Program-made: the position numbers and the translations under genes | NCBI GenBank assembly: GCA_016183985.1 | Contig: JACPDN010000005.1 | Location: 312,901 to 376,900 of the forward strand | DNA length: 64,000 nucleotides | Direction of reading: 5' to 3' | Source: Pseudomonadota bacterium | GTDB lineage: Bacteria; Pseudomonadota; Alphaproteobacteria; Dongiales; Dongiaceae | Notes under the pieces: generated by a model | Database searches by the model: none | The model's input: the letters and a program-made list of their open reading frames with translations, nothing else | Told to the model about the DNA's origin: nothing | Shown: positions 1-31,026 of the stretch, in pieces | How positions within the stretch are numbered: position 1 is the first letter of the stretch | Layout of the letters: the number at the start of each line of letters is the position of its first letter

Positions 1-262
1 TCAGCCTTGGCCATGGGGCCCTTTAACCTTTCCGGTATCGGATGGGAGAATCAAGATAACTGCATGATATCTTTAACTTTGCTGCACTCGCAATATTAAA
101 TGTTCATTCAGTGAACTTGCCATTTGCTGAATCACATGATAGATTTTTTATACAAACATTCAATGACCGGACGGCGACGAAGTGCTGATTTTGGCACATT
201 CGAGCACCCAACCGGAGCGCGGGGCAACACCCGCATCACTTTGAGAGCACGGAGATTTTCAA

Positions 263-1636
263 ATGACGACGATTAAAACCGAGCGTCGCAAAATGGATAA
301 GAATCGCGCCCACTTCAAAGAGGCGATCAAGCATCTGCCGCTGGGTGTCAGCTCCAACTTCCGCTATTGGGGCGACGACAACACGATCTTCGTGAAGAAG
401 GGCAAGGGCGCCCGCCTCTGGGATTTGGACGGCAACGAATATATCGATTACCGCCTTGGCTACGGCCCGGCCATCCTGGGCCATTGCAACGACATCGTCG
501 ATGCCGCGGCGCGCGATGCGCAGTCGATCGGCACCGTCTATGCGCTGGGCACCGAAAAGGAAGTCACCGTCGCCAAGCTCATCAAGGAGATGATGCCGGC
601 GGCCGAGCTCGTTCGCTTTTCGAACTCCGGCACCGAAGCCGTGATGGCCGCCTTGCGCCTGGCGCGCGGCTATACCGGCAAGGACAATTACGTCACCTTC
701 GAAGGCTCCTATCACGGCCTCTTCGACGCCAGCATGTGGACGGCTGATCCCGAGGACATGAAGGACCAGACCAAGCAACCCAAGGTCATCCCTTATGGCC
801 AGGGCATCCCGCAACTCGTCCGCCAGCTCTTCTGGCAGGTGCCGTATAACGATGCGCAGCGCCTCGAAGACGTGCTGAAGAAGAACCACGACACCATCGC
901 CGCCGTGCTGATCGAGCCGATCCTCGGCAATTGCTGCGGCATTCCCTCGAAGCCGGAATTCATCAAAGCCGTCCGCGAGCTGTGCACCAAATACGGCGTG
1001 CTGATGATCGTTGACGAAGTGAAGACCGGCTTCCGCGTCGCCAAGGGCGGCGCCCAGGAGCTCTATGGCATCGAGGCCGACATCTTCACGGTCGCCAAGG
1101 CGGTCGCCAATGGCTATCCGATCTCGGCAATCGGCGGCAAGGAAGAGATTCTGCGCAAATACGGCAAGGGCGTTGCCCATGGCGGCACCTACACCGCGCA
1201 GGCGATGAGCCTCGCGGCAGCCGAAGCGACGCTGACGATCCTCAAGGATACCGACGCCCTGAAGAACATCGCCGATTACGGTCAGGCGATGCAGGACGGC
1301 ATGCACAAGGTGCTGGCCAAGCGGGGCGTCCCGCACAGCTTCACCGGTCACCAGTCGATGTCCGGCCTCTTCTTCAGCGCTGAAGCACCGACGACCTACC
1401 GCAACTGGAAGCTCTCGGACTACACCTTCTACGACACCATGGCCGGTATCCTCATCGACATGGGCGTGATGTGCGAGCCGGACAGCCGCGAACCCTGGTT
1501 CATCTCCTCGGCGCACGATCAGAAGTGCCTCGAAGAGACGCTGGGCAAGTTCGAGGAAGCTGTCGATCTCACTCTGACCGAGCTCTCCAAGGGCCGTCAG
1601 AACGAGAACAAGCTGATGCCGGGCATCAGCGGCTAA
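263..1636 (+). CDS. Class III PLP aminotransferase, glutamate-1-semialdehyde aminomutase-like
   Basis: LPLGVSSNFR, GARLWDLDGNEYIDY, RFSNSGTEA, FEGSYHG, IVDEVKTGFR, PLP lysine in DIFTVAKAVANGYP; GGAG RBS upstream. Confidence 0.9.
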   Translation: MTTIKTERRKMDKNRAHFKEAIKHLPLGVSSNFRYWGDDNTIFVKKGKGARLWDLDGNEYIDYRLGYGPAILGHCNDIVDAAARDAQSIGTVYALGTEKEVTVAKLIKEMMPAAELVRFSNSGTEAVMAALRLARGYTGKDNYVTFEGSYHGLFDASMWTADPEDMKDQTKQPKVIPYGQGIPQLVRQLFWQVPYNDAQRLEDVLKKNHDTIAAVLIEPILGNCCGIPSKPEFIKAVRELCTKYGVLMIVDEVKTGFRVAKGGAQELYGIEADIFTVAKAVANGYPISAIGGKEEILRKYGKGVAHGGTYTAQAMSLAAAEATLTILKDTDALKNIADYGQAMQDGMHKVLAKRGVPHSFTGHQSMSGLFFSAEAPTTYRNWKLSDYTFYDTMAGILIDMGVMCEPDSREPWFISSAHDQKCLEETLGKFEEAVDLTLTELSKGRQNENKLMPGISG

Positions 1637-1811: not shown

Positions 1812-2324
1812 TTGGGCTTCGAGCAATTTGCGGCACGCATCGAATCGCCGGCCTTGTGCGACGTGGCGCAGCATTGGCACCAGGCACGTGGCGCCCGTCG
1901 CATGCCGGGCTGGAGCCAGATCGATCCCACCGAGATTGCCCGGCATCTGCCAATAATCTGGTCGTGGCGATTCGACGTAAGAACTGGCAGCTTCACCGGC
2001 CGCCTCTCGGGCGAAGACATCAACAACGCCTTCGGCAAGTCCGTGCGCGGCGCCCGCATGGAAGAGTTCTTCGCGCCCGATCAATACGACCACATCTATG
2101 CCCGCCACCGCCAAGTCGTGACCGAGCCGTGCTTCGCCCATGGCATCGGCGCGGTCTTCATTCATGCCGACCGCTATGGTGAAGGCGAACGCATCATTTT
2201 GCCGTTGGCGGAAGATGGCTTGATTGGCGATGGCATTATCGGCGCCACCTACTACCGCTTCGTCGACAATCCGCCCGTCGGCAGCCGCATGCTAGAAGAA
2301 ACGGTGAGCTACTTCTCGCTCTGA
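1812..2324 (+). CDS. Stand-alone PAS-domain (PAS_5-like) protein
   Basis: HWHQARGARRMPGWSQIDPTEI, FTGRLSGEDI, GERIILPLAEDG are typical of small alphaproteobacterial PAS proteins; TTG start with AGGGG RBS. Confidence 0.7.
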   Translation: MGFEQFAARIESPALCDVAQHWHQARGARRMPGWSQIDPTEIARHLPIIWSWRFDVRTGSFTGRLSGEDINNAFGKSVRGARMEEFFAPDQYDHIYARHRQVVTEPCFAHGIGAVFIHADRYGEGERIILPLAEDGLIGDGIIGATYYRFVDNPPVGSRMLEETVSYFSL

Positions 2325-3130
2325 TCCAACGTCCCTGGAAACAGCTTCCACGCCCCGACTGCATCGAGATAGGGCAGCGAGGGATAATCCGTGATGGTGA
2401 GCCCGCCATCCACCGTCAGCACGGTGCCGGTAACAAAACTCGCCTCGTCCGACGCCAGGAACAGCACCGCGCGCGCAATCTCGTCCGGTGTACCCATGCG
2501 CTGCAGCAGCGAGGCACTCTTCTCCCAATCCTCCACGGCGCCGCTGCCGCCTGTGGTTTCCGTCTTGATCCAGCCCGGAGATACCGCATTGGCGCGGATG
2601 CCGTGCGGCGCACCTTCAGTCGCCAGAGATCGGGTCAGCGATTCCAGCGCCGCCTTGGCCATGCCATAGGAACCCCAATTGCCGTGCAGCGTCGCGGTCG
2701 AGGAAATATTGACGATGGCGCCCTTACCGGCCGCCTTCAATGCCGGCAGCGCATAGGCGGAGACGAAATAGGCCGAATGGAGATTAGCCGACATGATCTT
2801 GGCCAGCCGCTCGCCCGGCGTATCGTTCTTCTCCACACCCGAACGCCGCGCGCCAGCCCCGGCATTGTTGACGACAACATCCAGTCGCCCGAAATGCGCC
2901 GTGACATCAGCAATCAGCTTCTTGGCATTCTCCTCAACGCCGATATCGGCAGCAAAGGAAGCAACTATTGCACCGTCAGCCCGCAGCTTCTGAGCAGCCA
3001 CTGTGGCCTTTGCCGCATCCCGACCGACAATCGCAACCTGTGCCCCTTCAGCTGCGGCCCGCTTGGCAATGCCATAGCCGATCCCGATCGTACCGCCGGT
3101 CACCAGAACAACCTTCCCCGCAAACCGCAT
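2309..3130 (-). CDS. Short-chain dehydrogenase/reductase (FabG-like)
   Basis: TGGTIGIG, NNAG, YGMAK (YxxxK), NAVSPG; start moved to MRFAGKV (ATG 3130, GGGGAG RBS). Confidence 0.92.
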   Translation of the reverse strand: MRFAGKVVLVTGGTIGIGYGIAKRAAAEGAQVAIVGRDAAKATVAAQKLRADGAIVASFAADIGVEENAKKLIADVTAHFGRLDVVVNNAGAGARRSGVEKNDTPGERLAKIMSANLHSAYFVSAYALPALKAAGKGAIVNISSTATLHGNWGSYGMAKAALESLTRSLATEGAPHGIRANAVSPGWIKTETTGGSGAVEDWEKSASLLQRMGTPDEIARAVLFLASDEASFVTGTVLTVDGGLTITDYPSLPYLDAVGAWKLFPGTLDQSEK

Positions 3131-3153: not shown

Positions 3154-3816
3154 TTAGGAATCGGTCTTTTTCTTCTCTGCCGCTGCCAGCTTTTCGCTTT
3201 GTTCGTAATAGAGGTCGAGCAATTTGACAAAGGCCATGCACGAGCGCACGGCATCTTTCGCCTTGAAAGCCTTCGGATAGAGCAGCGCCTGCAGCCAGAA
3301 ACCGTCGATCATGGCCGAGAGAGCCGCTGCCACGCGCACGGCCACCAGCTTGGCCTGCTTGGCCCCGGACGGACGCGCGATGCAGATGTTGTAGATCTGG
3401 TGTTCCAGCTCCTTCACATATCGGCGCTCGACCGCAGTCGCTGCGTCACGGAACTTGTCGCGCAGCTGCGGGTCCGACCAAAAGGCAAACCAGACGGCGA
3501 GCTTCACGCCCGTGAATACATCGCGGTCGAAATAGGCCTGGACCATTGCCTCAAGCCGAGCCCAAGGCTCGGCAGGCGCCGCATGCACGCGCGTCACCCA
3601 CACTTCCAGATATTCGGCGGCGAGATGCTTGAAGACCTCCTCGAACAGCTTGTCCTTGCTCTCGAAGTGAAAGTTCATCAGGCCGACCGATACATCGGCC
3701 GATTTCGCCACCCGGCTCACGGTCGTGCCGTGATAGCCGACCGCAGCGATCACCTGGATCGTCGCCTCGATGATCTCTTTTTTGCGGTTATTGCGGATGC
3801 CGGGGTTGCGGGCCAT
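3154..3816 (-). CDS. TetR-family regulator with BetI-like C-terminal domain
   Basis: HTH IIEATIQVIAAVGYHGTTVSRVAKSADVSVGLMNFHFESK; C-terminal WFAFW and AMIDGFWLQ as in BetI-type proteins. Confidence 0.88.
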   Translation of the reverse strand: MARNPGIRNNRKKEIIEATIQVIAAVGYHGTTVSRVAKSADVSVGLMNFHFESKDKLFEEVFKHLAAEYLEVWVTRVHAAPAEPWARLEAMVQAYFDRDVFTGVKLAVWFAFWSDPQLRDKFRDAATAVERRYVKELEHQIYNICIARPSGAKQAKLVAVRVAAALSAMIDGFWLQALLYPKAFKAKDAVRSCMAFVKLLDLYYEQSEKLAAAEKKKTDS

Positions 3817-3840: not shown

Positions 3841-3912
3841 TGGATTGCCTGGTCAAGTCCGGCAATGACGGCAAAAGTAGAACGTCATGCCCGGGCTTGA
3901 CCCGGGCATCCA
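3841..3912. repeat. Pair of alphaproteobacterial REP-like palindromes (GTCATGCCCGGGCTTGACCCGGGCATCCA type)
   Basis: 3841-3870 reverse-complements to CGTCATTGCCGGACTTGACCAGGCAATCCA; 3883-3912 reads CGTCATGCCCGGGCTTGACCCGGGCATCCA; back-to-back inverted copies. Confidence 0.8.
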
Positions 3913-3936: not shown

Positions 3937-5127
3937 TCACACAATCTCCTTCTTGCGCGGTGGATCGAAGAACATGCGGTTCCGCATCCAGCATTTGACC
4001 ATGCTGCGCTCGATCTTCTTTTCTTTGGGATACCATATCTCGATCCACATTTGCGTACCCGGCTTCGTATAGGCTGGCGGAATCTGCGCGAAAGCGATGT
4101 TCTTTTTCAAGAGCGGCGACCACATGGCGGATGTGGTGAGGCCCAGTTCCTTGGTGCCCTTCTCGTCGGCATAGAGGAACGCACCAGGCGCGGGCTTCCG
4201 CCCCTCGATCTCAATGCCGCTGAGAATGAAGCGGGACGACCCGTCCGCCCTCTCCTTCTGCAGCGCCCGCTTGCCGACAAAATAGGCGTCCTTCTTCAGG
4301 GCGACCGCCCAGCCGATCCCAGCCTCCATCGGTGAAACGCGCTGCGTCGGCCGGATGGCATGGTGCGAACCGATGTAATCCACATCAACCAGAATAAAGC
4401 CGGCTTCTATGCGCGTCATTTCCAGGGCATGCCCGCCCATGGGTGCAATCTTCAAGGGGTCGCCGGTCCGGAACAGGCTCTCCCACAGCCACAGCGCATC
4501 CTGCGGCTTCACCCAGATCTCATAGCCAAGATCGCCGGTAAAACCAGCTCGGTCGATGCGCAGCCAATGGCCATCGACGGCAGTTTCCATGATGCCGAAA
4601 TGCGGCAGCTTGCCAATGCCCTGCACGCCGAACGTTTCCAGGATCACCCGCGCATTCGGCCCCTGCAGTGACAGGCCGGCGAGCGTGTCCGAGACCTCCT
4701 CGATCTCGACCGAGAAGCCATAGGCGCTTTCATTGAGCCAATGCAGCTGATGCAAAGCCGCGTTGAGCAGGAACTCGTTCTCGCCCAGACGGAAGATCGT
4801 GCCTTCCTCGATCATGCGGCCGTCATCGTCGCACCAGGCCGTATAGGCGGCGTTCATCGGCTTGATCTTGGTCAGATCGCGCGTCACCAGATAGTTCGCG
4901 AACTTCGCTGCATCTTTGCCCTTGATCGCATATTTGATCAGCGGCGAAACGTCATAGACCGTGGCCCCGTTGCGGCATGCCATGTATTCCGACTGCGTCG
5001 AATCATAGAAGGCCGGCGAGTAAAAGCCCTGCCACCGAATCCAGCCCGCCCCATGCATCATGGCCGACATCGGCTCATGGAACGGCGTCTTCTTGAGGAA
5101 CGGCTTCAGATGCTGAACATGGGTCAT
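3937..5127 (-). CDS. Aminomethyltransferase family (GcvT-like, THF-binding) protein
   Basis: KKTPFH, YDVSPLIK, DDDGRMIEEG, LSLQGPNA, RAGFTGDLGYEIW, MTRIEAGF. Confidence 0.9.
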   Translation of the reverse strand: MTHVQHLKPFLKKTPFHEPMSAMMHGAGWIRWQGFYSPAFYDSTQSEYMACRNGATVYDVSPLIKYAIKGKDAAKFANYLVTRDLTKIKPMNAAYTAWCDDDGRMIEEGTIFRLGENEFLLNAALHQLHWLNESAYGFSVEIEEVSDTLAGLSLQGPNARVILETFGVQGIGKLPHFGIMETAVDGHWLRIDRAGFTGDLGYEIWVKPQDALWLWESLFRTGDPLKIAPMGGHALEMTRIEAGFILVDVDYIGSHHAIRPTQRVSPMEAGIGWAVALKKDAYFVGKRALQKERADGSSRFILSGIEIEGRKPAPGAFLYADEKGTKELGLTTSAMWSPLLKKNIAFAQIPPAYTKPGTQMWIEIWYPKEKKIERSMVKCWMRNRMFFDPPRKKEIV

Positions 5128-5160
5128 GCAATGACTCCGTCATTGATCAGTTGCAAGCAG

Positions 5161-5275
5161 TACCCCCCTCCCCGGCCCTCCCCCTCAAGGGGGGAGGGCG
5201 AAGTGAGGCACTGCCTAACAACGAGTTGGGTGCTGTCCTCTCCTCCCTTGAGGGAGAGAGCTGGAGAGGGGGGTA
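5161..5275. repeat. Inverted pair of CCCCCC-N-CCTCCCCCTCAAGGGGGGAGGG-type palindromic repeats (REP/RPE-like)
   Basis: 5161-5198 TACCCCCCTCCCCGGCCCTCCCCCTCAAGGGGGGAGGG and the inverted copy at 5236-5275; intergenic. Confidence 0.75.
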
Positions 5276-5292
5276 GCAACTGCGCCATCGCA

Positions 5293-6891
5293 TCACGCCA
5301 CATGACCACGCCTCCCCTTCACATCCTTCAAAATCTCGCGTGCCGCATTGGCGCCGGCCGCACCCGAGACGTTGCCGCCCGGATGAGCGCCCGCCCCGCA
5401 CAGCCACAGGCCCGGCAGCGGCATCTTGTATTGCTGGAACGAGGCGGCCGGCCGCAGAAAGAAGACCTGGTCCAGAGTCACTTCACCGTGATGCCATTGC
5501 CCACCCGAAAGGTTGAATTGGCTCTCCATATCCTGCGGTGTCAGCACTTCGGACGCCGTCACTTGGGCTTTCACCCCCGGCGCAATCTGCTCCAGCACGT
5601 TTAGCGTCCGCTCCAGCACCTGCGTCCGCGCTTCATCTGCTGTGGTGGTGCGCAATTTGTAGGGCGCGTATTGGCTCAGGATCGACATGACATGCTTGCC
5701 GCTGGGTGCCAGGCTCGGATCGGTCAGCGTCGGCACCACGATTTCGAGCGCCGGGTTGTCGGCCACGCGACCGTATTTCGCACAATCGAAGGCATGTTCG
5801 ACGTAATTCGTCGACGGCGCGAAGATCATCCGGCCCTGCGCATTGCGGAACACGTCGGGCAGGCCATCCAATGCCAGATGCACCTTCGCCACACAGCCAT
5901 TCATGCGAAGGTGCCGCATGCGTCGCAGGAACTCGGTGTCAAGATTGCCGGGCTCCACAAGATGCAACAATGTCCGCTGCGGATCGGCGCTTGACGCGAT
6001 AATTGGTGCGCGGATTTCCTCCCCACTCGCCAGGACCACACCGACGGCTTGATCCTTTTCAATGAGGATGCGACCGACCGGCGCTTGCGTGCGGATAGCG
6101 ACGCCGGCTGCCTTCGCCGCCTGCGCCAGCGCATCGACAACGGCGCCCATCCCGCCCTGTGGCAGGAAGTGACCGCCCTGCCCGTGCTTCGTGTCCATCG
6201 ACGCCAGGCGGTAAAGCAGGTTGAAGACGGTGTTGGGCGAGCGCGGCCCCAGATAGACGCCGAGCGTCGCCTCGAGGCCCAGCAATCCTTTGAGGATATC
6301 GCTCTCAAAGAAATCGTTAGCGAGGTCCGCCACATTGATGGTGAGGATGCGGGAAAGCTCCAGCATGTCCTTCTTGCCCATCATGCGCAGCTTCAGCGCA
6401 AACATGCCGAGCGCGAGTTTGGTCTGGAAATCGTTCGAACTCGGCGATGGGCTCGGCGGCGTGCGCAACAGGAAGCTACCCAAGGCACCCGCCAGTCGCA
6501 CCAGTCGCTCCATGCGCGGGTGATAGGCCAGCGAATCCGCCTGGCTGAATTTGGCGATGGCCGCCTGCGTCGCCACCTTGTCGGAGGTGATGTCGAGCCG
6601 CGCGCCACCGGGCAGCATGGCCGAGGTGCCGATCGCCTTGTCCGCGATCTTCAGCCCGTGCTGCATCAAATCGAGATCGGCGATGATCTTGGGATGCAAT
6701 GCATGCAACAGATGGGCCACAGCCGAAACTCGGTAGCCTTTGGCGAATTCCCGCGTCCGGGCGGCACCGCCCGGCTGCTCACCCGCTTCCAGCACCAGCA
6801 CTTTCTGCCCGGCTTTCGCCAGATAAGTCGATGTCACAAGGCCGTTATGCCCGGCGCCAATGACGATGACGTCGTAATTGTTGGCGGCCAT
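5293..6891 (-). CDS. Phytoene dehydrogenase-like FAD-dependent oxidoreductase (paralog B)
   Basis: YDVIVIGAGHNGL Rossmann motif, LPQGGMGAV, GGQWHHGE, LWLCGAGAHPGGNVSGAAGANAA; start at ATG 6891, immediately after the upstream stop. Confidence 0.88.
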   Translation of the reverse strand: MAANNYDVIVIGAGHNGLVTSTYLAKAGQKVLVLEAGEQPGGAARTREFAKGYRVSAVAHLLHALHPKIIADLDLMQHGLKIADKAIGTSAMLPGGARLDITSDKVATQAAIAKFSQADSLAYHPRMERLVRLAGALGSFLLRTPPSPSPSSNDFQTKLALGMFALKLRMMGKKDMLELSRILTINVADLANDFFESDILKGLLGLEATLGVYLGPRSPNTVFNLLYRLASMDTKHGQGGHFLPQGGMGAVVDALAQAAKAAGVAIRTQAPVGRILIEKDQAVGVVLASGEEIRAPIIASSADPQRTLLHLVEPGNLDTEFLRRMRHLRMNGCVAKVHLALDGLPDVFRNAQGRMIFAPSTNYVEHAFDCAKYGRVADNPALEIVVPTLTDPSLAPSGKHVMSILSQYAPYKLRTTTADEARTQVLERTLNVLEQIAPGVKAQVTASEVLTPQDMESQFNLSGGQWHHGEVTLDQVFFLRPAASFQQYKMPLPGLWLCGAGAHPGGNVSGAAGANAAREILKDVKGRRGHVA

Positions 6892-6892
6892 G

Positions 6893-8548
6893 TCACACCA
6901 CCCCGTGCTTGAAGTCTCTGAGCATTTCGCGCGCCGCATTGGCGCCGGGCGCACCCATCACGCCGCCGCCCGGATGCGTGCCCGATCCGCACATATAGAA
7001 ATTGTCGAACGGACCGCGATATTGGCCGAGGCCCGGGAACGGCCGGTTGAACAGCATCTGGTCGAGCGTCAACTCACCTTGGAAGATATTGCCTTCGGTG
7101 AGGCCGACTTCATTCTCGATGTCCCAGGGTGTGCGCGTCTGGCAATGCAGGATCAGCTTTTTGAAGCCGGGCGCGTTCATCTCGATCGTATCGAGCACGT
7201 CATTTTCAAACGCCGCTTTCATCTCCGGCGTCCAGGGTTGCTCGCCAAGCTTGTAGGGCACGTATTGCACGAAGACCGACATGAAATGCTTGCCCGGCGG
7301 TGACATGGTGGGATCGACCGTCGTCGGTATGACAATGTCGAGGAACGGCCGCTTCGACCACGAGCCGTATTTGTAATCGTCATAGGCGCGCTCGATGTAA
7401 TCGAAGTCGCCACCGATATCGATCGTACCCCAGGCCGATTCCTTCGGCAGGCCGGCAAATTGCGGCAATCCGTCGAGAGCAATGTTGAGCTTGCCCGAGC
7501 TGCCGCGGATCTTGAAGTTCTTGGCGTAGGTATGGATGTCGGGATCTATTGCATCGAGATCCGATTTCTCAATGAGTTTCAGATAGGTGCGCTTCGGATC
7601 GGCATTGGAGACGACCGTGCGCGCATAGATCTCTTCGCCATTCTTCAACGCAACACCGACCGCCTTGCCATTGCGCACGATGATCTTGTCCACCTCTGCA
7701 TTGGTGCGAATCTCGACGCCGGCCTCAGTCGCAGCCGACGCGATCGCCTTCGAGACCGACCCCATGCCACCGCGCGCAAAGCCCCAGGCGCCGATCTGCC
7801 CATCGACTTCGCCCATATAATGGTGCAGCAGCACATAGGCCGTACCCGGTGAATACGGGCCCAGCGCCGTGCCGATGATCGACGAGGCGGCAGAGAAGCC
7901 TTTCCAGCGTGGCGTCTCGAAATACTCGTCGAGAAAATCGCCGATCGACATGGTCCAGAAGCGGATGATCTCATACATCTGCTTCTCGCCCATGCGCCCG
8001 AACTCGCGCGCGATCTTCAGCAACCCTTCCAGATCGTTGCGCTTGCCCCAGGGGTTGATCTTGTTCTGCGCAAACGGGTTGATTTGTGTGGGGTCGGGCG
8101 GCGTCACCATCAGCAGCGGCTTGATGAAGCGGCACTGCCGGCTGATCTCCGCCGCATAATGATCGTAAGCCTCTGCATCCTTGATCGAATGCCGGCGCAG
8201 CGATTCACGCGTGCGGTCATGATCCGAATAGGTGACGATCCCCTCGCCTTCCGGATTGGGCGACGAGTTGATCTCATAGGGGATGACTTGCAACCCGTGT
8301 CGCGGCAGATCGAGGAAGCGGAATATCTCCGGCCTCAGCAGCGAGCACACATAGGAGCAGGTCGAATAGGTGAAGCCGGGATAGATCTCCTCCGACATCG
8401 CCGCGCCACCCACCTTGTGATAGCGTTCCAGCACCAACACCTTGAGCTTGTTCTTGCCGTCCTTCTCGCCCCCTTTGGCGAGATAGGCTGCCGTCACCAA
8501 CCCGTTATGACCGCCGCCGATCACAATGGCATCGTATTTGGTCGCCAT
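6893..8548 (-). CDS. Phytoene dehydrogenase-like FAD-dependent oxidoreductase (paralog A)
   Basis: YDAIVIGGGHNGL, GGAAMSEEIYPGF, GAWGFARGGMG, GNIFQGELTLDQM, CGSGTHPGGGVMGAPG. Confidence 0.9.
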   Translation of the reverse strand: MATKYDAIVIGGGHNGLVTAAYLAKGGEKDGKNKLKVLVLERYHKVGGAAMSEEIYPGFTYSTCSYVCSLLRPEIFRFLDLPRHGLQVIPYEINSSPNPEGEGIVTYSDHDRTRESLRRHSIKDAEAYDHYAAEISRQCRFIKPLLMVTPPDPTQINPFAQNKINPWGKRNDLEGLLKIAREFGRMGEKQMYEIIRFWTMSIGDFLDEYFETPRWKGFSAASSIIGTALGPYSPGTAYVLLHHYMGEVDGQIGAWGFARGGMGSVSKAIASAATEAGVEIRTNAEVDKIIVRNGKAVGVALKNGEEIYARTVVSNADPKRTYLKLIEKSDLDAIDPDIHTYAKNFKIRGSSGKLNIALDGLPQFAGLPKESAWGTIDIGGDFDYIERAYDDYKYGSWSKRPFLDIVIPTTVDPTMSPPGKHFMSVFVQYVPYKLGEQPWTPEMKAAFENDVLDTIEMNAPGFKKLILHCQTRTPWDIENEVGLTEGNIFQGELTLDQMLFNRPFPGLGQYRGPFDNFYMCGSGTHPGGGVMGAPGANAAREMLRDFKHGVV

Positions 8549-8564: not shown

Positions 8565-8597
8565 TGAATGCTTATTCAATTCTTGAATGCTTATTCA
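8565..8597. promoter_or_regulatory. Tandem operator, two identical TGAATGCTTATTCA quasi-palindromes
   Basis: Exact 14-mer at 8565-8578 and 8584-8597 (19-bp period), 17 bp upstream of the operon start. Confidence 0.7.
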
Positions 8598-8688: not shown

Positions 8689-9756
8689 ATGAAGATTAAG
8701 ATCGGCTTGGCCGGCGCCGCCCTGCTCGCCCTCGCCCTCATCGGCCCGGCTGCCGCCAAGACCAAGAATCCGCTGCAGCCCCCGCCACCGGCCGTGCCGG
8801 TCGGTGATGTCGATGCTCAGCCCCTCGAAGCTCTCACGCCGCCGACGCTCGAAGGCACCGGTCAGGCCATTGATGGCGATGAGATCGCGATCGGCGATGT
8901 GATCTTCCAGCTCGATGGCATTGCTGCCCCGCTTATGACTGCGCCGATGGGTCCGGAAGCGCGTGTCGCCTTGCAGGCACTCATCGACGGTCAGCGCCTC
9001 ACTTGCAACGTGCTCGATCGCGGCGAGGATGCGAAGCATCTATCCGGCGTTTGCAAGATCGGCGATGACGATGTCGCCGAAGCCTTGCTGGCCGGTGGCA
9101 TGGCGGCAGTCTATCGGCAGACGACCTCGCCGAATGCCGAAGAGCGCGAGCGCGCGGCGCGTTATGACGCTGCCGAAACCGAGGCCCGCGGCCGCAATCT
9201 GGGTCTTTGGACAAGGCCGGCATCGGAAGAGGCGAAGATCGAGCAGGCCCCGCCTACACAAGAGCCGGCGATGGACCGCGATCTCTTGCGCGGCTGGCTT
9301 ATTCAGATTCCGATCGTTGCCTTCCTCGCCCTTGCGGGGCTTGTTGCGCTTGTCGTGAACAGCTATCGGAACCGAGCGGAGGACAAGGCGGTCGAAGCGG
9401 AAAGCCAGGCACTTCTTGCCATCCTGCTGGGCGAAGTGCTGGCCGTGCGCGCGGCGGCACAGGCGGCGGTCGACGGCACCGCCAACCTCATCCAGGATTT
9501 ACCGATTCCAACAGCACAACTGGCGAGCCTCGCCTTGCCACCAATGACAGTGTTCGAGGCCAATGCCGACAAGCTTGCCTCGCTGCCGCGCGAGGTGTCG
9601 GTGGATATGGTGCAGTTCCATGCCCGACACAAGATCGTCGCCAAAGTTCTGTCGCAGGCGTCGACCTTGCGCTGCGAGCAGCTGCGGGCGGCCTTCGAGG
9701 CCCTGGTCCAGGCCGCGGACGAACCGATGCAACGGGCGGAAAAGCTGCTTGGCTAG
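8689..9756 (+). CDS. Secreted/membrane thermonuclease (SNase-like) domain protein with TM helix and helical C-terminal domain
   Basis: Signal peptide; AIDGDEI, LDGIAAP, ALLAGGMA, AETEARGRNLGLW match the SNase fold; TM WLIQIPIVAFLALAGLVALVV. Confidence 0.75.
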   Translation: MKIKIGLAGAALLALALIGPAAAKTKNPLQPPPPAVPVGDVDAQPLEALTPPTLEGTGQAIDGDEIAIGDVIFQLDGIAAPLMTAPMGPEARVALQALIDGQRLTCNVLDRGEDAKHLSGVCKIGDDDVAEALLAGGMAAVYRQTTSPNAEERERAARYDAAETEARGRNLGLWTRPASEEAKIEQAPPTQEPAMDRDLLRGWLIQIPIVAFLALAGLVALVVNSYRNRAEDKAVEAESQALLAILLGEVLAVRAAAQAAVDGTANLIQDLPIPTAQLASLALPPMTVFEANADKLASLPREVSVDMVQFHARHKIVAKVLSQASTLRCEQLRAAFEALVQAADEPMQRAEKLLG

Positions 9757-10637
9757 GTGTGCTGCGGATAGCGGCGCTCGAGGTAACGCGCGAGCGCCGT
9801 GAGCAGGATCAGGATCGCCATGTATTCGAGCGCCAGGAAGGTATAGATCTCCATCGGATGGAGAATTTGGGTCTGGGATAGCATCGCCCGCCGCGTGATC
9901 TCCATGACGCCGATGGCACCTCCGAGTGACGAATCCTTGACGACCGAGATGAACTGGCTGGTCATCGGCGGCAGCATGCGCCGGACGGCCTGGGGCAGGA
10001 TGATCCGGCGCATCAGCAGCGGCCGCGACATGCCGAAAGCAAAGCCCGCGTCGATCTGTTGCTTCGAGACGCTTTCAATGCCAGCGCGGAAAATCTCGAC
10101 CAGAAAGGCGCCGGCGTTGAGCGAGAGGCCAATGCAGGCCGCCGTGAAAGGCGTCATCTGGCTGAGCATGTCGAGTCCCGGCAGGGAACGCAGATTGTCC
10201 GGCAGTTCACTGATCGCGATCGGCAGCGCGTAATACATCCAGAGCAGCAGGACAAAGAGCGGCACCATGCGGAAGCCTTCCACATAGAGCCAGACCGCGC
10301 GCTGCACCGAACGGTGCCTGCTGCGCGAGAGGATTGCCCCCAGCAGTCCGATGACCGAGCCGCAGGCGATCGCATAAAGCGAGAGCAGCAAGGTGAACTG
10401 AAAACCCGCCGTCAGGAACCAGAAATACTTGTCGCCGGTCGGAGTGCCTGGCGTAAGCGGCGTCCAGTCGCCGCAGCCGGTCAGCAGGAGCGCCAAGAGC
10501 GTTGCGGCAGCGGGACTTGCCGCACGGCGTACGGCCGCAGAGGACCGGCCCGGCCCCAACTGGCCAAGATGCGTCGACGATAAGCCCAAGGAATGGTTCC
10601 CGCAAAGAAGGCGCCCAATGGCGCATCGTGGTGTCAT
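9753..10637 (-). CDS. Polar amino acid ABC transporter permease
   Basis: YVEGFRMVPLFV, GLSLNAGAFLVEIFRAGIESV (EAA-like loop), RRIILPQAVRR, SVVKDSSL; start uncertain. Confidence 0.88.
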   Translation of the reverse strand: MTPRCAIGRLLCGNHSLGLSSTHLGQLGPGRSSAAVRRAASPAAATLLALLLTGCGDWTPLTPGTPTGDKYFWFLTAGFQFTLLLSLYAIACGSVIGLLGAILSRSRHRSVQRAVWLYVEGFRMVPLFVLLLWMYYALPIAISELPDNLRSLPGLDMLSQMTPFTAACIGLSLNAGAFLVEIFRAGIESVSKQQIDAGFAFGMSRPLLMRRIILPQAVRRMLPPMTSQFISVVKDSSLGGAIGVMEITRRAMLSQTQILHPMEIYTFLALEYMAILILLTALARYLERRYPQHT

Positions 10638-18962: not shown

Positions 18963-19179
18963 ATGCCAATATCACCCCGCCAAATTATATCGGCGGCTTT
19001 GTTAACAACATGTGGGCACATTAAGGCGATTCGGATGTGAATCTCCGGTATCGGCGACCTATTTCGGCGTCATCCATCGCCGGAAGAGGACAATGATCCT
19101 TTCGTTGGTCAGCTGCGCCCGCGGAAGTCGTCAATCCCAGTTCTGTTCGCAACCCGCTGCGGCGAAGTGGAAACGTCGA

Positions 19180-19557
19180 TCAGGCGAGGCTTGAACGCAT
19201 GATGGCAAGGCCCAGAAAGACAGCGCCGATCGAGAGCAGGACGGAAGCCAGTACATAAAAGGCAACGGGGCCGACGGCGCCGCGCTCATAAAGCATCGCC
19301 GTGTCGAGCGAGAAGGCCGAGAAGGTCGTGAAGCCGCCGAGAATGCCGGTGGTGAGAAAAAGCCGCCATGACTGGCTCGCCTCCCCCTTAAAGGCGAAGT
19401 ATCCGGCGACAAGGCCCATCGTCAGTGATCCCAGCACATTGATGACCAACGTCCACCAAGGAAAATCGGGACCGAGGACACGCAACGTGGCCGAGTTGAC
19501 GCCATGGCGGATGGCGCCGCCAATGCCCGCCCCGATAAAGACGATGAGATAGTTCAT
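19180..19557 (-). CDS. crcB: Fluoride efflux channel CrcB/FluC
   Basis: GAGIGGAIRH, WTLVINVLGS, TTGILGGFTTFSAFS; start at MNYLIVF with GAGGGGG RBS. Confidence 0.95.
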   Translation of the reverse strand: MNYLIVFIGAGIGGAIRHGVNSATLRVLGPDFPWWTLVINVLGSLTMGLVAGYFAFKGEASQSWRLFLTTGILGGFTTFSAFSLDTAMLYERGAVGPVAFYVLASVLLSIGAVFLGLAIMRSSLA

Positions 19558-19709
19558 GATCGATAGCCCCCTCTTCGTGCCGGCAGAATAGTGATCGACG
19601 ACACGACCGCGGCGCAAGTGGCCACACATCCTGCCTACATGCAGCCGATATGGAAGGCAATGCGGCGGGTGCAAAGCTAATTGCGTTGACGGTAAGGCGC
19701 GACCGGGCC

Positions 19710-20111
19710 CTACACCGCCGATTCAGCACCCCGACCGCGTTGGCGTTGGGCGAGGTATTTGGTGTTGGTGATACGCAGTTCGGTCGCCGTCGTTTCGACC
19801 AGATGATCGATGAGGCGCGTTTCCTCCGGCTTGCCTGCCGCGAACTTTCTCGCGCGGATATCGGCGGCAAGCTGGCGGCGCAGGGCGGCAAGATCGTCGC
19901 CGACATCGCGGCCGTAAAGACGCGCAAAGCTCTGCAACTCGCTGCGGCGCGATTCAGCGGCGCCTTCGAGATCCTGCTTGGCCACCGAAATGGCGCGCGC
20001 AATCATCGCGGCCTGGAATTTCTGGCGGCCGTTCAAGGTCGGCAGCAGATCTTCCTGCAATGTCGTCAGAGCCGCCTCGAGTAGCGCATCGGCGCCCGGT
20101 CGCTGCTTCAT
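19710..20111 (-). CDS. DUF6285/LvaB-like small protein
   Basis: RPGADALLEAALTTLQEDLLP, KFQAAMIARA, ELRITNTKY; overlaps the stop of the APH kinase gene. Confidence 0.65.
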   Translation of the reverse strand: MKQRPGADALLEAALTTLQEDLLPTLNGRQKFQAAMIARAISVAKQDLEGAAESRRSELQSFARLYGRDVGDDLAALRRQLAADIRARKFAAGKPEETRLIDHLVETTATELRITNTKYLAQRQRGRGAESAV

Positions 20112-21187
20112 GCGGCATCTCCTTCTTCATTGCGCTTCTTCGGCACAGGCTTGAAGCCCGGCAGGCGCAGATCGATCAGCAGGTCGTATTCCATTTCCAG
20201 CGAGACCAAGCCAGTCAGCGCCAGCTCCATCGATCGTTCGCGCCCCGAGAGATGCCGCTCTGCCTGCTCCAGCGACATGATGGCCCAGCGCAGCGCAGCC
20301 ATCTGTTCCCAGAAGCGCACCTTGCCATCGTCGACCGGTGCACCACCAGCCGCTTCGTAGCCGGCATAGAAGGCGTCGCGCCGGCCGATGCCGCCGGCCT
20401 CGGCGCTATACATGCCGAAGCGCCAGCAACGGGCGCAGAACCAGCCGAGATCCTCGTAAGGGTCCGACCAGCCGGCGAATTCGAAATCCAGCACGCCGGT
20501 AAGGCCGGCATTCTCGACGAGGTAATTGCCGGTGCGGAAATCGCGGTGACAGAACCGGATGACATCACCGCCGCGTGCATAAGCAGGTGCCTCGTCTTCC
20601 AGGCGGTTGACCGCCCATTCCAGCACCGGCTGCGCTTCAGGCAATGCGTCGAGGCGGCGGCGAAATTCGGCAAGCCGCGCTGCCACCAGATCGGCGGCCG
20701 GTGCCGGCAGGAAGGCGAGATCCGCCTGTGCCGCAGCCGGTGCAATGCGATGAAGCTTGGCAAGTTCGGCGCCAAGCTCTTGTGCCAGGGCATCGCCCTC
20801 CTCTTCCTCCAGCGCCCGCACAAGCTTCCTGGGATCGGCGGAACCGGAAAGGCGCTGCGTCAGGTGAAAGGGCTGGCCGATGACGGATCCTGTTTCCTCC
20901 AGCCACAGAGGCTGCGGCGCCTTGACCCCAGCGGCATGCACCACTTTGAGCAGGGCGAACTCCTGCGCCTTGCCCCAGCTTTCGTCGATACCGGATGGGG
21001 CGTCGGCGCGCAGGATCGCGGCAATGGTCTTGCCATCGATCGCGAGATCGACCGCCCAGTTCTCCTGAATGGCGCCGCCGCCCAGGCGACCGACGAGTTT
21101 GACGGCGACCTCCTTGGCGCCGGTCGCGCGGCGCAGGAATGCCTCGATGGCAGCGATATTATTGGCGAGCATGACGCTCAACCCCAT
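20108..21187 (-). CDS. APH/choline kinase-family phosphotransferase (LvaA-like)
   Basis: GGGAIQENW, AQEFALLK, FCHRDFRTGNY, GVLDFEFAGWSDPYEDLGW; start may be at 21172. Confidence 0.88.
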   Translation of the reverse strand: MGLSVMLANNIAAIEAFLRRATGAKEVAVKLVGRLGGGAIQENWAVDLAIDGKTIAAILRADAPSGIDESWGKAQEFALLKVVHAAGVKAPQPLWLEETGSVIGQPFHLTQRLSGSADPRKLVRALEEEEGDALAQELGAELAKLHRIAPAAAQADLAFLPAPAADLVAARLAEFRRRLDALPEAQPVLEWAVNRLEDEAPAYARGGDVIRFCHRDFRTGNYLVENAGLTGVLDFEFAGWSDPYEDLGWFCARCWRFGMYSAEAGGIGRRDAFYAGYEAAGGAPVDDGKVRFWEQMAALRWAIMSLEQAERHLSGRERSMELALTGLVSLEMEYDLLIDLRLPGFKPVPKKRNEEGDAA

Positions 21188-29523: not shown

Positions 29524-31026
29524 TCACAGACTGGAGAGAAATGAAATCAGCGCCTGCCGGTCGTTCGCCGACAGATTGGCAACATGATCGCGCGCCGGCA
29601 AGGCTTCACCACCATGCCACAGGATAGCTTCAAGGATATTGCGCGCACGGCCATCATGCAGCAGGGCGCCCTGGCCTTGATGATCGACAGCCCAACGCAA
29701 GCCCCAGAGCGGTGCCGTGCGCCATTCACGACCCTCTGCCTGATCTTCAATGAGGTCTTCGGCAAGACCATCGCCCATGTCATGAAGCAGCAGGTCCGTA
29801 TAGGGTGAAATATGCCGTTTCATTGCAGCGCCCTTCGGCCATTCGATGTCATAGCCGGGGTGGTGGCAGGCCTGGCATCCCGCAGCGGCAAAGACGGCGC
29901 GGCCTTTTTCGAGTGTCGCGGCATCCGCCAGCGGCTTGGGGCCGGCCGGCAAAACAGCCTCTGCCACGAAACGGTCGAGAACCTTGACCAGAGTGCTGGT
30001 CACTTCCAGATCCTCGAATTGCGGCGAGGCACCGCTGGGCGCTGCGCGGCAGGCAGTCTGGCGCGCCGTGCATTCGCCATAGGCATCCGGGAAAAGTGGT
30101 GTGGAGAGTCCCATGTCGGCAAAGAAGGCGTGCGAATTCTGCGCCTCGAGGCTCGGCATGATGGCCTTCCAGCCAAAGCGGCCGAAGGTTTTTTGCTCGG
30201 CATCCAGCCAATGGACGCGGCCGGAAACACCATCACCATCCTTGTCGTCCGGATCGGCCAGGGCCATGATCGCCTTTGCCGGAATACTGTCGAGCGGTCC
30301 CATGCCATGGATCGCGGGCGCAAGCCTAAGCCCCGTGACAGTATCGGGTGCCAAGGGGCCAGCAGCCATATCGTGGAGCGTCACCGTCGGCCGACGCAGC
30401 GTGACGATGGTGCCGTCAGCGAGCTTGGTTTGGGAGAGCGCATCGTCGAGCGTAAACCCGCCTTCACGCGGAACACCGCGCGCGGCTTCAGTCTGCAACT
30501 GTCGGCCATAGACAGGATCTGCAGCGCCGTCTTTTCGAGCGCCCAGGCGCACAAGCAGCGAAGGGCTGAGCGAGCCATCCTTATTGACCAGCGTGCCATG
30601 TGCGCCGCCGGGGTGACAGGCAGCACAAGAGCGTGCATTGAACATCGGCCCCAGACCATCGGCCGCCTCGGTCGAAGACGGTGCCGACACCCAGATGCGC
30701 TCGAAGATCGACTGGCCGATGACATTCTCCATCCGTGCTACGGCGTCGTCGCCGAGCGCCGGATCGCGGAGGACTTTCACGACGCGGCGCGGCTTGGTTG
30801 CCTCGTCGGCGGGTGCCAGAAGCGCTCCGGCAGTAAGGACAGTGAAAAAGATGGCAGAGCCGAGGATGACAGCCCCCCACCCCGAAGGCGAACGCCGATC
30901 TTCGTTGGCGGGCCTCCCCCTGAAGAGAGAGGGTTTAGGACGAGATGGACGGTGCATGAAAACCCCTCGCCCTTCAGGGGGAGGAGTTGTGGTGGGGGGT
31001 GGTGCCGTATCAGGGTTAGGCGACAC
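29524..31026 (-). CDS. Di-haem oxidoreductase (DHOR-family) c-type cytochrome
   Basis: DGLGPMFNARSCAACH, DPDDKDGDGVSGR, GRFGWKA, GCQACH, YTDLLLHDMG, WRTAPLWG, LLHDGRAR; start GTG 31026 or ATG 30957. Confidence 0.9.
   Translation of the reverse strand: MSPNPDTAPPPTTTPPPEGRGVFMHRPSRPKPSLFRGRPANEDRRSPSGWGAVILGSAIFFTVLTAGALLAPADEATKPRRVVKVLRDPALGDDAVARMENVIGQSIFERIWVSAPSSTEAADGLGPMFNARSCAACHPGGAHGTLVNKDGSLSPSLLVRLGARKDGAADPVYGRQLQTEAARGVPREGGFTLDDALSQTKLADGTIVTLRRPTVTLHDMAAGPLAPDTVTGLRLAPAIHGMGPLDSIPAKAIMALADPDDKDGDGVSGRVHWLDAEQKTFGRFGWKAIMPSLEAQNSHAFFADMGLSTPLFPDAYGECTARQTACRAAPSGASPQFEDLEVTSTLVKVLDRFVAEAVLPAGPKPLADAATLEKGRAVFAAAGCQACHHPGYDIEWPKGAAMKRHISPYTDLLLHDMGDGLAEDLIEDQAEGREWRTAPLWGLRWAVDHQGQGALLHDGRARNILEAILWHGGEALPARDHVANLSANDRQALISFLSSL
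30912..31005. repeat. Inverted pair of CCTCCCCCTGAAG-type palindromic repeats inside the 5' end of the DHOR ORF
   Basis: Minus CCCCCCACCACAACTCCTCCCCCTGAAGGGCGAGGGG (~31000-30964) and plus CCTCCCCCTGAAGAGAGAGGG (30913-30933); same family as 5161-5275. Confidence 0.65.

Follow-up and report, generated by a model that had tools for sequence, protein, structure and literature searches.

What reaction is catalysed by two adjacent flavoproteins whose nearest solved relatives are carotenoid desaturases, when the next gene encodes a lone relative of the T-protein of the glycine-cleavage system? The question is raised by a 64,000-nucleotide stretch of DNA from an alphaproteobacterium of the family Dongiaceae (contig JACPDN010000005.1, positions 312,901 to 376,900 of the forward strand; hereafter the window). 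Three of its genes, two of which encode flavin adenine dinucleotide (FAD) enzymes, are at issue:

6893 to 8548, minus strand: FAD-A (A), 551 residues, a PYROXD2-type flavoprotein, conserved and presumably the catalytic subunit
5293 to 6891, minus strand: FAD-B (B), 532 residues, a faster evolving paralogue of FAD-A with its own active-site signature
3937 to 5127, minus strand: T, 396 residues, a stand-alone folate protein of the GcvT family and the presumed one-carbon (C1) trap

We consider it probable that A-B-T is a three-part, folate-coupled oxidative N-demethylase built on a flavoprotein of the CrtI/PYROXD2 type. In the open-access full-text literature that was searched, no description of the A-B-T module was found.

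Conservation and layout of the module

The window belongs to a species of Dongia; its 98%-identical loci and closest homologues come from Dongia metagenome-assembled genomes and isolates. A genome scan returned 48 loci, almost only from Dongiaceae, as its search patterns fell in FAD-A insertions specific to this family; the bias was offset by look-ups of distant homologues and by a metagenome scan with a FAD-A protein alignment, which yielded 80 further loci (FAD-A 53-85% identical; 53 with enough flanking DNA). B and T followed A in the same order in 38/38 genome loci with at least 2.9 kb downstream of A. Among the 53 metagenome loci with room, 47 carried A-B-T, five carried a divergent T with A and a second paralogue (A2), and one carried a divergent T with A alone. 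In all, T adjoins A in 91/91 loci with enough flank (38 genome and 53 metagenome), 85 of them in the A-B-T order. The T-linked loci include Alpha- and Gammaproteobacteria in which FAD-A is only 53-64% identical, and the A-B-T order was found in Limibacillus, Porticoccaceae, Steroidobacteraceae, Rhodovibrionaceae and one metagenome contig (FAD-A 58-64% identical). A preliminary description of this DNA had held that its proposal of a split demethylase would fall if the flavoprotein homologues were not co-conserved with GcvT; the opposite was observed, with T adjacent throughout this range of identity. In Dongia deserti, the three genes are surrounded only by unrelated ones (sugar transport, PPK2 and SerA), which indicates that A-B-T is a self-contained unit.

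The variant architecture, with T upstream on the opposite strand, was seen in eight loci (L098, L107, L116, L124, L126, L127, L129 and L130); the second flavoprotein of the variant is closer to A than to B and has an intermediate motif, G(H/Q)I(F/Y)H(G/A)E.

In the window, one base separates the TGA of FAD-A from the ATG of FAD-B; the start of FAD-B was placed at this ATG (6891) and not at the upstream GTG (6954) because MAANNYDVIVIGAGHNG aligns with homologues. In distant lineages, the module genes overlap by 1-8 nt or are separated by gaps of at most 9 nt. These short A-B gaps and overlaps, which we list in support of the module, are suggestive of translational coupling. The preliminary description had called the genes tightly packed, which is right for FAD-A and FAD-B (1 nt) and wrong for FAD-B and T, whose spacing in the window is 165 nt because an element has been inserted:

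5128 to 5292, no strand: GC-rich palindromic element, resembling repetitive extragenic palindromic (REP) sequences, 165 nt, between FAD-B and T

On folding, this element forms a single long hairpin (−97.8 kcal/mol); in the sister Dongia genomes L001, L005 and L008, the FAD-B/T gap is 16-22 nt and holds no insert. Other palindromic inserts occur at the same junction in L004 and L016, and one arm of the element in the window resembles the sequence at ~30963-31000 (38 nt, ~80% identity). One apparent FAD-A/FAD-B fusion protein (P0021, 904 residues) was rejected as a frameshifted read-through of adjacent genes.

The flavoproteins and their proposed link to formaldehyde

That the two flavoproteins are paralogous, as had been proposed, was borne out by alignment (38% identity over 549 columns, E 5e-111). 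Both belong to the Amino_oxidase/CrtI superfamily of Pfam (FAD-A matches Amino_oxidase, DAO and NAD_binding_8), with GxGxxG at the N-terminus and the FAD motif at the C-terminus intact; GNIFQGELTLDQ is the signature motif of FAD-A. In the flavin-adjacent segment, FAD-A and PYROXD2 have GNIF(Q/H)GE (GNIFQGE in the FAD-A of the window), whereas FAD-B has G(H/Q)WH(H/Q)GE, a split that is consistent across 219 open reading frames (ORFs) from all loci. FAD-A evolves more slowly, with a mean orthologue identity of 60%, compared to 42% for FAD-B. Two insertions mark the FAD-A of Dongiaceae, namely GEKDGKNK at residues ~27-34, inside the first beta-alpha-beta unit, and a 12-residue loop of the QNKINPWGKRN type at residues ~155-170, where the predicted local distance difference test (pLDDT) score of the structural model drops to 52-62.

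The AlphaFold model of FAD-A (pLDDT 88.5, predicted template modelling score 0.90) has the three-domain FAD fold of the CrtI type, in line with the fold that had been suggested from the sequence alone. Its top folds in the PDB are CrtD 4REP (E 2e-26, template modelling (TM) score 0.74-0.83), 3KA7 and CrtI 4DGK, with 17-18% identity to the solved carotenoid-enzyme structures; the next are amine-oxidising flavin oxidases and dehydrogenases, i.e. NicA2, monoamine oxidase (MAO) and putrescine oxidase, which are remote matches (TM ~0.5, 14-15% identity). Among NCBIfam models, the best for both flavoproteins is beta-carotene ketolase CrtO (NF045689; 262.5 bits for A and 266.2 bits for B, cut-off 1000). 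The crtI_fam model (TIGR02734, cut-off 238) was not reached (116.7 and 147.9 bits, respectively), every carotenoid family cut-off lies far above the scores of FAD-A and FAD-B, and the soxB model gave 23 bits against a cut-off of 529.

A closer relative is PYROXD2, for which database entries retrieved with a human PYROXD2 query (98% identity) served as references. FAD-A aligns with mouse PYROXD2 over its full length (38% identity, 563 columns, E 3e-124), compared to 35% identity for FAD-B, and in a tree PYROXD2 joins the FAD-A clade, not FAD-B (support 1.0). The motifs SY..SLLRP, GAWG..GGMG, GNIFHG..LDQ and CGSG.HPGGGVMGA are common to PYROXD2 and FAD-A, which, by full-length homology and signature motifs together, belongs to the PYROXD2 family. 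Two human studies associate PYROXD2 variants with N6,N6-dimethyllysine and its N2-acetyl derivative (N2-acetyl-N6,N6-dimethyllysine) and link the locus to trimethylamine levels; they report metabolite associations only and assign no activity to the protein (PMC7878905, PMC13352909).

When 1.84 billion protein representatives were searched, 2,116 clusters (50% identity) matched FAD-A at E <= 1e-30. In at least 21 protist protein clusters, the PYROXD2 homologue is preceded, N-terminally, by a glutathione-dependent formaldehyde-activating (GFA) domain (PF04828). Holders of such fusions include Perkinsus olseni and EukProt/MMETSP transcripts (proteins P0301, P0391-P0400, P0426 and others), and one fusion of 816 residues is a single unbroken ORF on a eukaryote-like contig (L132, 1437-3887). 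Thus, one flavoprotein family is associated with two unrelated formaldehyde handlers, the GcvT-like protein of bacteria and the GFA domain of protists, as would be expected if the flavoprotein releases formaldehyde equivalents. Read as a Rosetta-stone link, the fusions would connect formaldehyde with the flavoprotein itself. Homology to PYROXD2, the metabolite associations of the human gene and the fusions in protists are all in agreement with release of a formaldehyde equivalent from an N-methyl group.

The folate protein, the neighbouring genes and their control

T is, as had been described, a stand-alone protein of the GcvT fold: its 396 residues contain GCV_T (187 bits) and GCV_T_C (36 bits), an acidic residue at the catalytic position and TGxxGxE, which place it in the GcvT superfamily. 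E107/E108 of T align with D95/D96 of the T. maritima protein, of which we take D96 to be the catalytic Asp of T-proteins; D or E occupies the catalytic position in 11/11 orthologues, and the TG(D/E)LGYE motif is kept (FTGDLGYE in Dongia). The best NCBIfam match is the C-terminal half of the trimethylamine N-oxide demethylase Tdm (252.6 bits, profile positions 386-751 of 763; cut-off 1100). T falls below the GcvT cut-offs (175.5 bits vs. 235.85 for TIGR00528 and 211.5 vs. 300 for NF001567), and its match to SoxA covers only the C-terminal part of the model (166.6 bits, cut-off 1164). The S-demethylase DmdA is the lowest among the amine-type relatives of T (NF009133; 133.6 bits, cut-off 410), and matches to the O-demethylases LigM and DesA are weak (53-54 bits). 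In the PDB, Tdm (9q5a, E 5e-52) is followed by T-proteins (E 1e-47) and then by dimethylglycine dehydrogenase (DMGDH) and SoxA. Judged by these matches, T is nearest to domains that trap formaldehyde equivalents from a partner domain (Tdm, DMGDH, SoxA). The T proteins of the module have in common an insertion of ~9 residues, at about residues 247-264, and the C-terminal tail F(F/Y)DPPRK, both missing from T-proteins and Tdm, and these are candidate contact sites for FAD-A and FAD-B.

The earlier remark that no carotenoid or glycine-cleavage genes lie nearby held among the ORFs scanned (window position 1 to ~22.4 kb), where no crt, gcvH or gcvP was present; likewise, no gcvH or gcvP was found in any annotated related locus, and no crt gene in 12 annotated distant loci. 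In one locus of Rhodovibrionaceae (L051), a second, divergent GcvT-family gene without TGDLGYE lies ~5 kb from the module (19065-20216, minus strand), next to a zinc alcohol dehydrogenase and a LysR regulator.

The genes that flank A-B-T in the window are the following, SDR standing for short-chain dehydrogenase/reductase and ABC for ATP-binding cassette:

263 to 1636, plus strand: class-III (omega) aminotransferase, GntE/HemL-like, Aminotran_3 244 bits
1812 to 2324, plus strand: small ORF with a PAS_5 domain, between the aminotransferase and the SDR
2309 to 3130, minus strand: SDR oxidoreductase, adh_short_C2 207 bits, 23 nt past TetR
3154 to 3816, minus strand: TetR regulator (TetR_N and TetR_C_6) with a BetI-type C-terminal domain
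8689 to 9756, plus strand: membrane-anchored SNase-domain protein, directly upstream of the FAD-A side
9753 to 10637, minus strand: orphan amino-acid-type ABC permease, upstream of FAD-A

The class-III aminotransferase, which had been left out of the preliminary description, is a recurrent fourth gene of the module. An orthologue is the next gene upstream of A, in the same orientation, in 29/65 metagenome loci and also in L018, L034, L049 and L050; the orthologues of L049 and L050 are 62-72% identical to that of the window. On profile comparison, the enzyme resembles glutamate-1-semialdehyde aminomutase and GntE (475 bits for the GntE model, cut-off 525) and has no substrate-specific match. 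A GbcA-like Rieske oxygenase, which the Dongia locus lacks, lies near the module in 20/34 long loci, and a TetR_C_6 (BetI-type) regulator likewise does so in 20/34; regulators of this type flank the module in Limibacillus, Porticoccaceae and other lineages. A further recurrent neighbour, an ABC transporter, has a binding protein like SpuD, SpuE and PotF (E 2e-98 to PDB 3ttl), and Porticoccaceae carry a puu-like gamma-glutamylation set beside the module. Some lineages add a protein resembling acyl-CoA dehydrogenases (ACAD), with ~160 bits against several unrelated equivalogs, an ADP-forming CoA ligase or a DgcA-like flavin mononucleotide (FMN) protein.

Judged by predicted function, these recurrent neighbours are genes for the catabolism of methylated amines or polyamines, and they would narrow the substrate to polyamine-like or omega-amino cations, no finer. 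The preliminary description had allowed for an N- or an S-methyl substrate. The Rieske, BetI-type, transporter and transaminase context favours the first part of this claim and makes S-methyl much less likely; the GbcA-like oxygenase, BetI-type regulator, polyamine-type transporter and omega-transaminase, as annotated, point to breakdown of N-methyl amines. The TetR and SDR genes that it had named are both present and on the same strand, outside the interval 3937-8548 that it covered. The SDR, confined to the loci of the Dongia mobilis group (L001, L005-L008), is a lineage-specific passenger. The SNase-domain protein and the ABC permease keep their position in the same group and have no evident tie to A-B-T.

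The TetR regulator passes one BetI model (PRK00767/NF001978, 122.7 bits, cut-off 118) and fails the stricter TIGR03384 (125.5 bits, cut-off 201.3), and there is no betA or betB near it. Two regions with operator-like sequences were identified in the window:

8565 to 8597, minus strand: tandem putative operator, two exact TGAATAAGCATTCA palindromes 5 nt apart, 17-49 nt upstream of the FAD-A start
97 to 174, plus strand: regulatory region of the aminotransferase, with operator-like TAAATGTTCATTCA (97-110) and a second box TATACAAACATTCAATGACCGGACGG (149-174)

The TGAAT-N4-ATTCA palindrome upstream of A is kept in Dongia loci with an adjacent TetR, is near-perfect in a locus of Porticoccaceae (L047) and in L051 (Rhodovibrionaceae), and is missing where TetR is missing (L020, L022, L027 and L028). 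Upstream of the aminotransferase, conservation of the boxes at 97-110 and 149-174 spans seven Dongia loci, and both can still be recognised in L018, L034 and L049; the match at 97-110, taken alone, is at chance level within the window. Conservation of boxes at both FAD-A and the aminotransferase supports one TetR regulon that unites the two units. A scan for promoter and terminator consensus sequences in the window gave counts at chance level.

The four TetR-less Dongiaceae loci have another conserved motif upstream of A, (G/A)TACATTATT(T/C)(G/A)TTGAC at ~9880-9920, which suggests a different putative regulator or promoter. Within the 120-nt gap between T and TetR, a perfect hairpin with a 9-bp stem, ATGCCCGGG tcaa(g) CCCGGGCAT, was found at 3887-3909 (coordinates counted by hand); it is possibly a terminator or a repeat, in which case TetR and SDR may form a separate transcript.

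A proposed N-demethylase, its alternatives and its relatives

From these observations we infer an A/B/T complex, its chemistry, electron acceptor and substrate, and separate roles of A and B. Hydride transfer from an N-methyl group of a secondary or tertiary amine to the flavin of subunit A would produce an iminium ion, and FAD-B might be the heterodimer partner of A, act on a second methylation state or serve in electron transfer. T, with tetrahydrofolate (THF), would intercept the iminium ion or carbinolamine and form 5,10-methylene-THF, not free formaldehyde. After one or two rounds, a primary amine would result, which the GntE-like transaminase (263-1636) would convert to an aldehyde; with a quaternary substrate, the first methyl would be taken off by the GbcA-like Rieske oxygenase whose gene adjoins A-B-T in other lineages. 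Repression of A-B-T and of the transaminase in Dongia would be exerted by the BetI-type TetR at TGAAT-N4-ATTCA operators and relieved by an inducer resembling choline, betaine or a polyamine. The likeliest substrates would be omega-N-methylated amines, e.g. methylated di- or polyamines, omega-(di)methylamino acids and N6-methyl-lysines.

Several observations weigh against this reading. Carotenoid desaturases and ketolases, rather than amine oxidases, provide the nearest solved folds and the best family models for the flavoproteins; the T of Dongia has Glu in place of the catalytic Asp of T-proteins, a conservative change; and no electron acceptor gene (electron-transfer flavoprotein or cytochrome) was found at the Dongia locus. 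The neighbours vary by lineage (ACAD, CoA ligase, SDR), so that the substrate may vary as well and is unreadable from context. GFA genes are only occasional neighbours of bacterial A-B-T (L045/46, L051, L073), and the formaldehyde-activating role of GFA has itself been questioned. Among sequencing runs, this stretch occurs in DNA metagenomes only (groundwater) and in no RNA run. Finally, the rare-variant signal of human PYROXD2 is not independent of the common variants of the locus, and causality of PYROXD2 is therefore not proven.

The alternative that survives best, which we nevertheless regard as improbable, is that A and B together are a conventional amine oxidase or dehydrogenase that, like polyamine oxidase, NicA2 or putrescine oxidase, cuts a non-methyl C-N bond to give an amino-aldehyde, with T acting separately as a redox-neutral, DmdA-like methyltransferase or as a C1 scavenger, e.g. 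for the Rieske enzyme. The presence of NicA2, MAO and putrescine oxidase among the fold neighbours fits this scheme, as do the polyamine-type transporters and puu-like genes beside the module in Porticoccaceae, and the frequent Rieske N-demethylase neighbour, a source of free formaldehyde, could be the real partner of T. However, the Rieske gene is found in only 20/34 long loci and not at the Dongia locus, whereas T is adjacent to A in every locus with enough flank, and T scores lowest on DmdA (~134 bits, compared to ~253 bits for Tdm). The GFA fusions, moreover, link the flavoprotein itself to formaldehyde. In many operons the gene just before A encodes the transaminase, whose need for a primary amine is easier to reconcile with demethylation than with C-N cleavage.

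Less probable still, to the point of being quite unlikely, is that the module takes C1 units from a heteroatom other than nitrogen (S-methyl, as in dimethylsulfoniopropionate (DMSP) or methylthio compounds, or O-methyl), or processes aminomethyl or N-carboxymethyl groups (opines, N-substituted glycines). The GcvT family includes the S-demethylase DmdA and the O-demethylases LigM and DesA, several hosts belong to marine DMSP-rich taxa (Porticoccaceae, Rhodovibrionaceae), and some lineages have, beside the module, genes for a CoA ligase and an acyl-CoA dehydrogenase like those of the dmdBC pathway. Against these points stand the weak scores of T on LigM and DesA and its weakest amine-type score on DmdA, and the regulator, transporter, transaminase and PYROXD2 metabolite genetics all indicate amines; to our knowledge, no flavoenzyme of this superfamily oxidises S-methyl or O-methyl groups. 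The third alternative, that A and B are true CrtI/CrtO-type desaturases or ketolases of a carotenoid, isoprenoid or lipid, coincidentally linked to T, has in its favour the best NCBIfam model and the CrtD and CrtI folds and is close to refuted, given scores at about a quarter of the CrtO cut-off and below that of crtI_fam, no crt genes nearby, an amine-catabolism context throughout and a T linkage across distant taxa that rules out coincidence.

How does the proposed folate-coupled N-demethylase compare with known systems? Flavin oxidation of an N-methyl group, as proposed here, together with C1 capture as methylene-THF by a GcvT-like folate protein, is the principle of heterotetrameric sarcosine oxidase (SoxABDG), of the fused DMGDH and sarcosine dehydrogenases and of dimethylglycine oxidase (DMGO). 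T aligns with the GcvT-like parts of SoxA, DMGDH and DMGO, and the flavin (SoxB) and folate (SoxA) subunits of SoxABDG are on separate chains, so that a split arrangement is not unprecedented. However, the flavoproteins of the sarcosine oxidase group are of the DAO family, whereas A and B fall in the CrtI/PYROXD2 branch, and the module differs from SoxABDG in having two paralogous flavoproteins and a free-standing T, with no SoxD or SoxG seen. A-B-T probably works like sarcosine oxidase and DMGDH but lies outside their families, in another branch of the superfamily and with two flavoproteins and a free T. Tdm, too, has a C-terminal GcvT-like domain, the best match of T, which traps formaldehyde from a separate catalytic domain; its N-terminal half (DUF1989, metal-dependent and non-redox) is absent from T.

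Precedent for the chemistry on this fold comes from the Pfam Amino_oxidase superfamily, to which LSD1/KDM1A, MAO, polyamine oxidase and NicA2 belong together with A and B. LSD1 demethylates N-methyl-lysine oxidatively via an iminium ion, releases formaldehyde and has been reported to bind folate. It differs in that its substrate is protein-bound lysine and that its SWIRM and Tower domains were not found in A or B by Pfam scan. CrtI, CrtD and CrtO are the nearest solved folds and top-scoring named models of A and B but differ in the level of those scores, in crt context and in sequence (17-18% identity). As for the regulator, the module TetR is like BetI in its C-terminal domain and in passing one model, and its putative operator is an AT-rich TGAAT-N4-ATTCA palindrome; it is unlike BetI in failing the stricter equivalog and in having no betA or betB nearby.

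PYROXD2 is a full-length homologue of FAD-A with A-type motifs; in animals, however, it is a single gene, with neither a B paralogue nor a T partner in an operon, and the protist PYROXD2 is fused to GFA. We put forward tentatively, as possible rather than likely, that the PYROXD2 family is a new enzyme class of N-demethylases that release formaldehyde equivalents from free methylated amines. A-B-T would be its bacterial prototype, bacteria pairing the flavoprotein with a free GcvT-like trap and protists with a fused GFA, and human PYROXD2 would be an N6-methyl-lysine oxidase/demethylase. An orphan activity of this kind bears the name epsilon-alkyllysinase (EC 1.5.3.4). If human PYROXD2 has this activity, its associations with methyl-lysine and trimethylamine would be explained.

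If the proposed function of A-B-T is correct, a reaction would be assigned to a large family (2,116 clusters) that databases label 'phytoene dehydrogenase-like' or 'FAD-dependent oxidoreductase', and folate-coupled N-demethylation would gain a third architecture, beside the DAO-type fused dehydrogenases and sarcosine oxidase. A step would also be supplied for methylated-amine degradation in bacteria of soil and groundwater and in abundant marine groups such as Porticoccaceae, and the function of the mitochondrial human PYROXD2 would become directly testable with easily expressed bacterial proteins.

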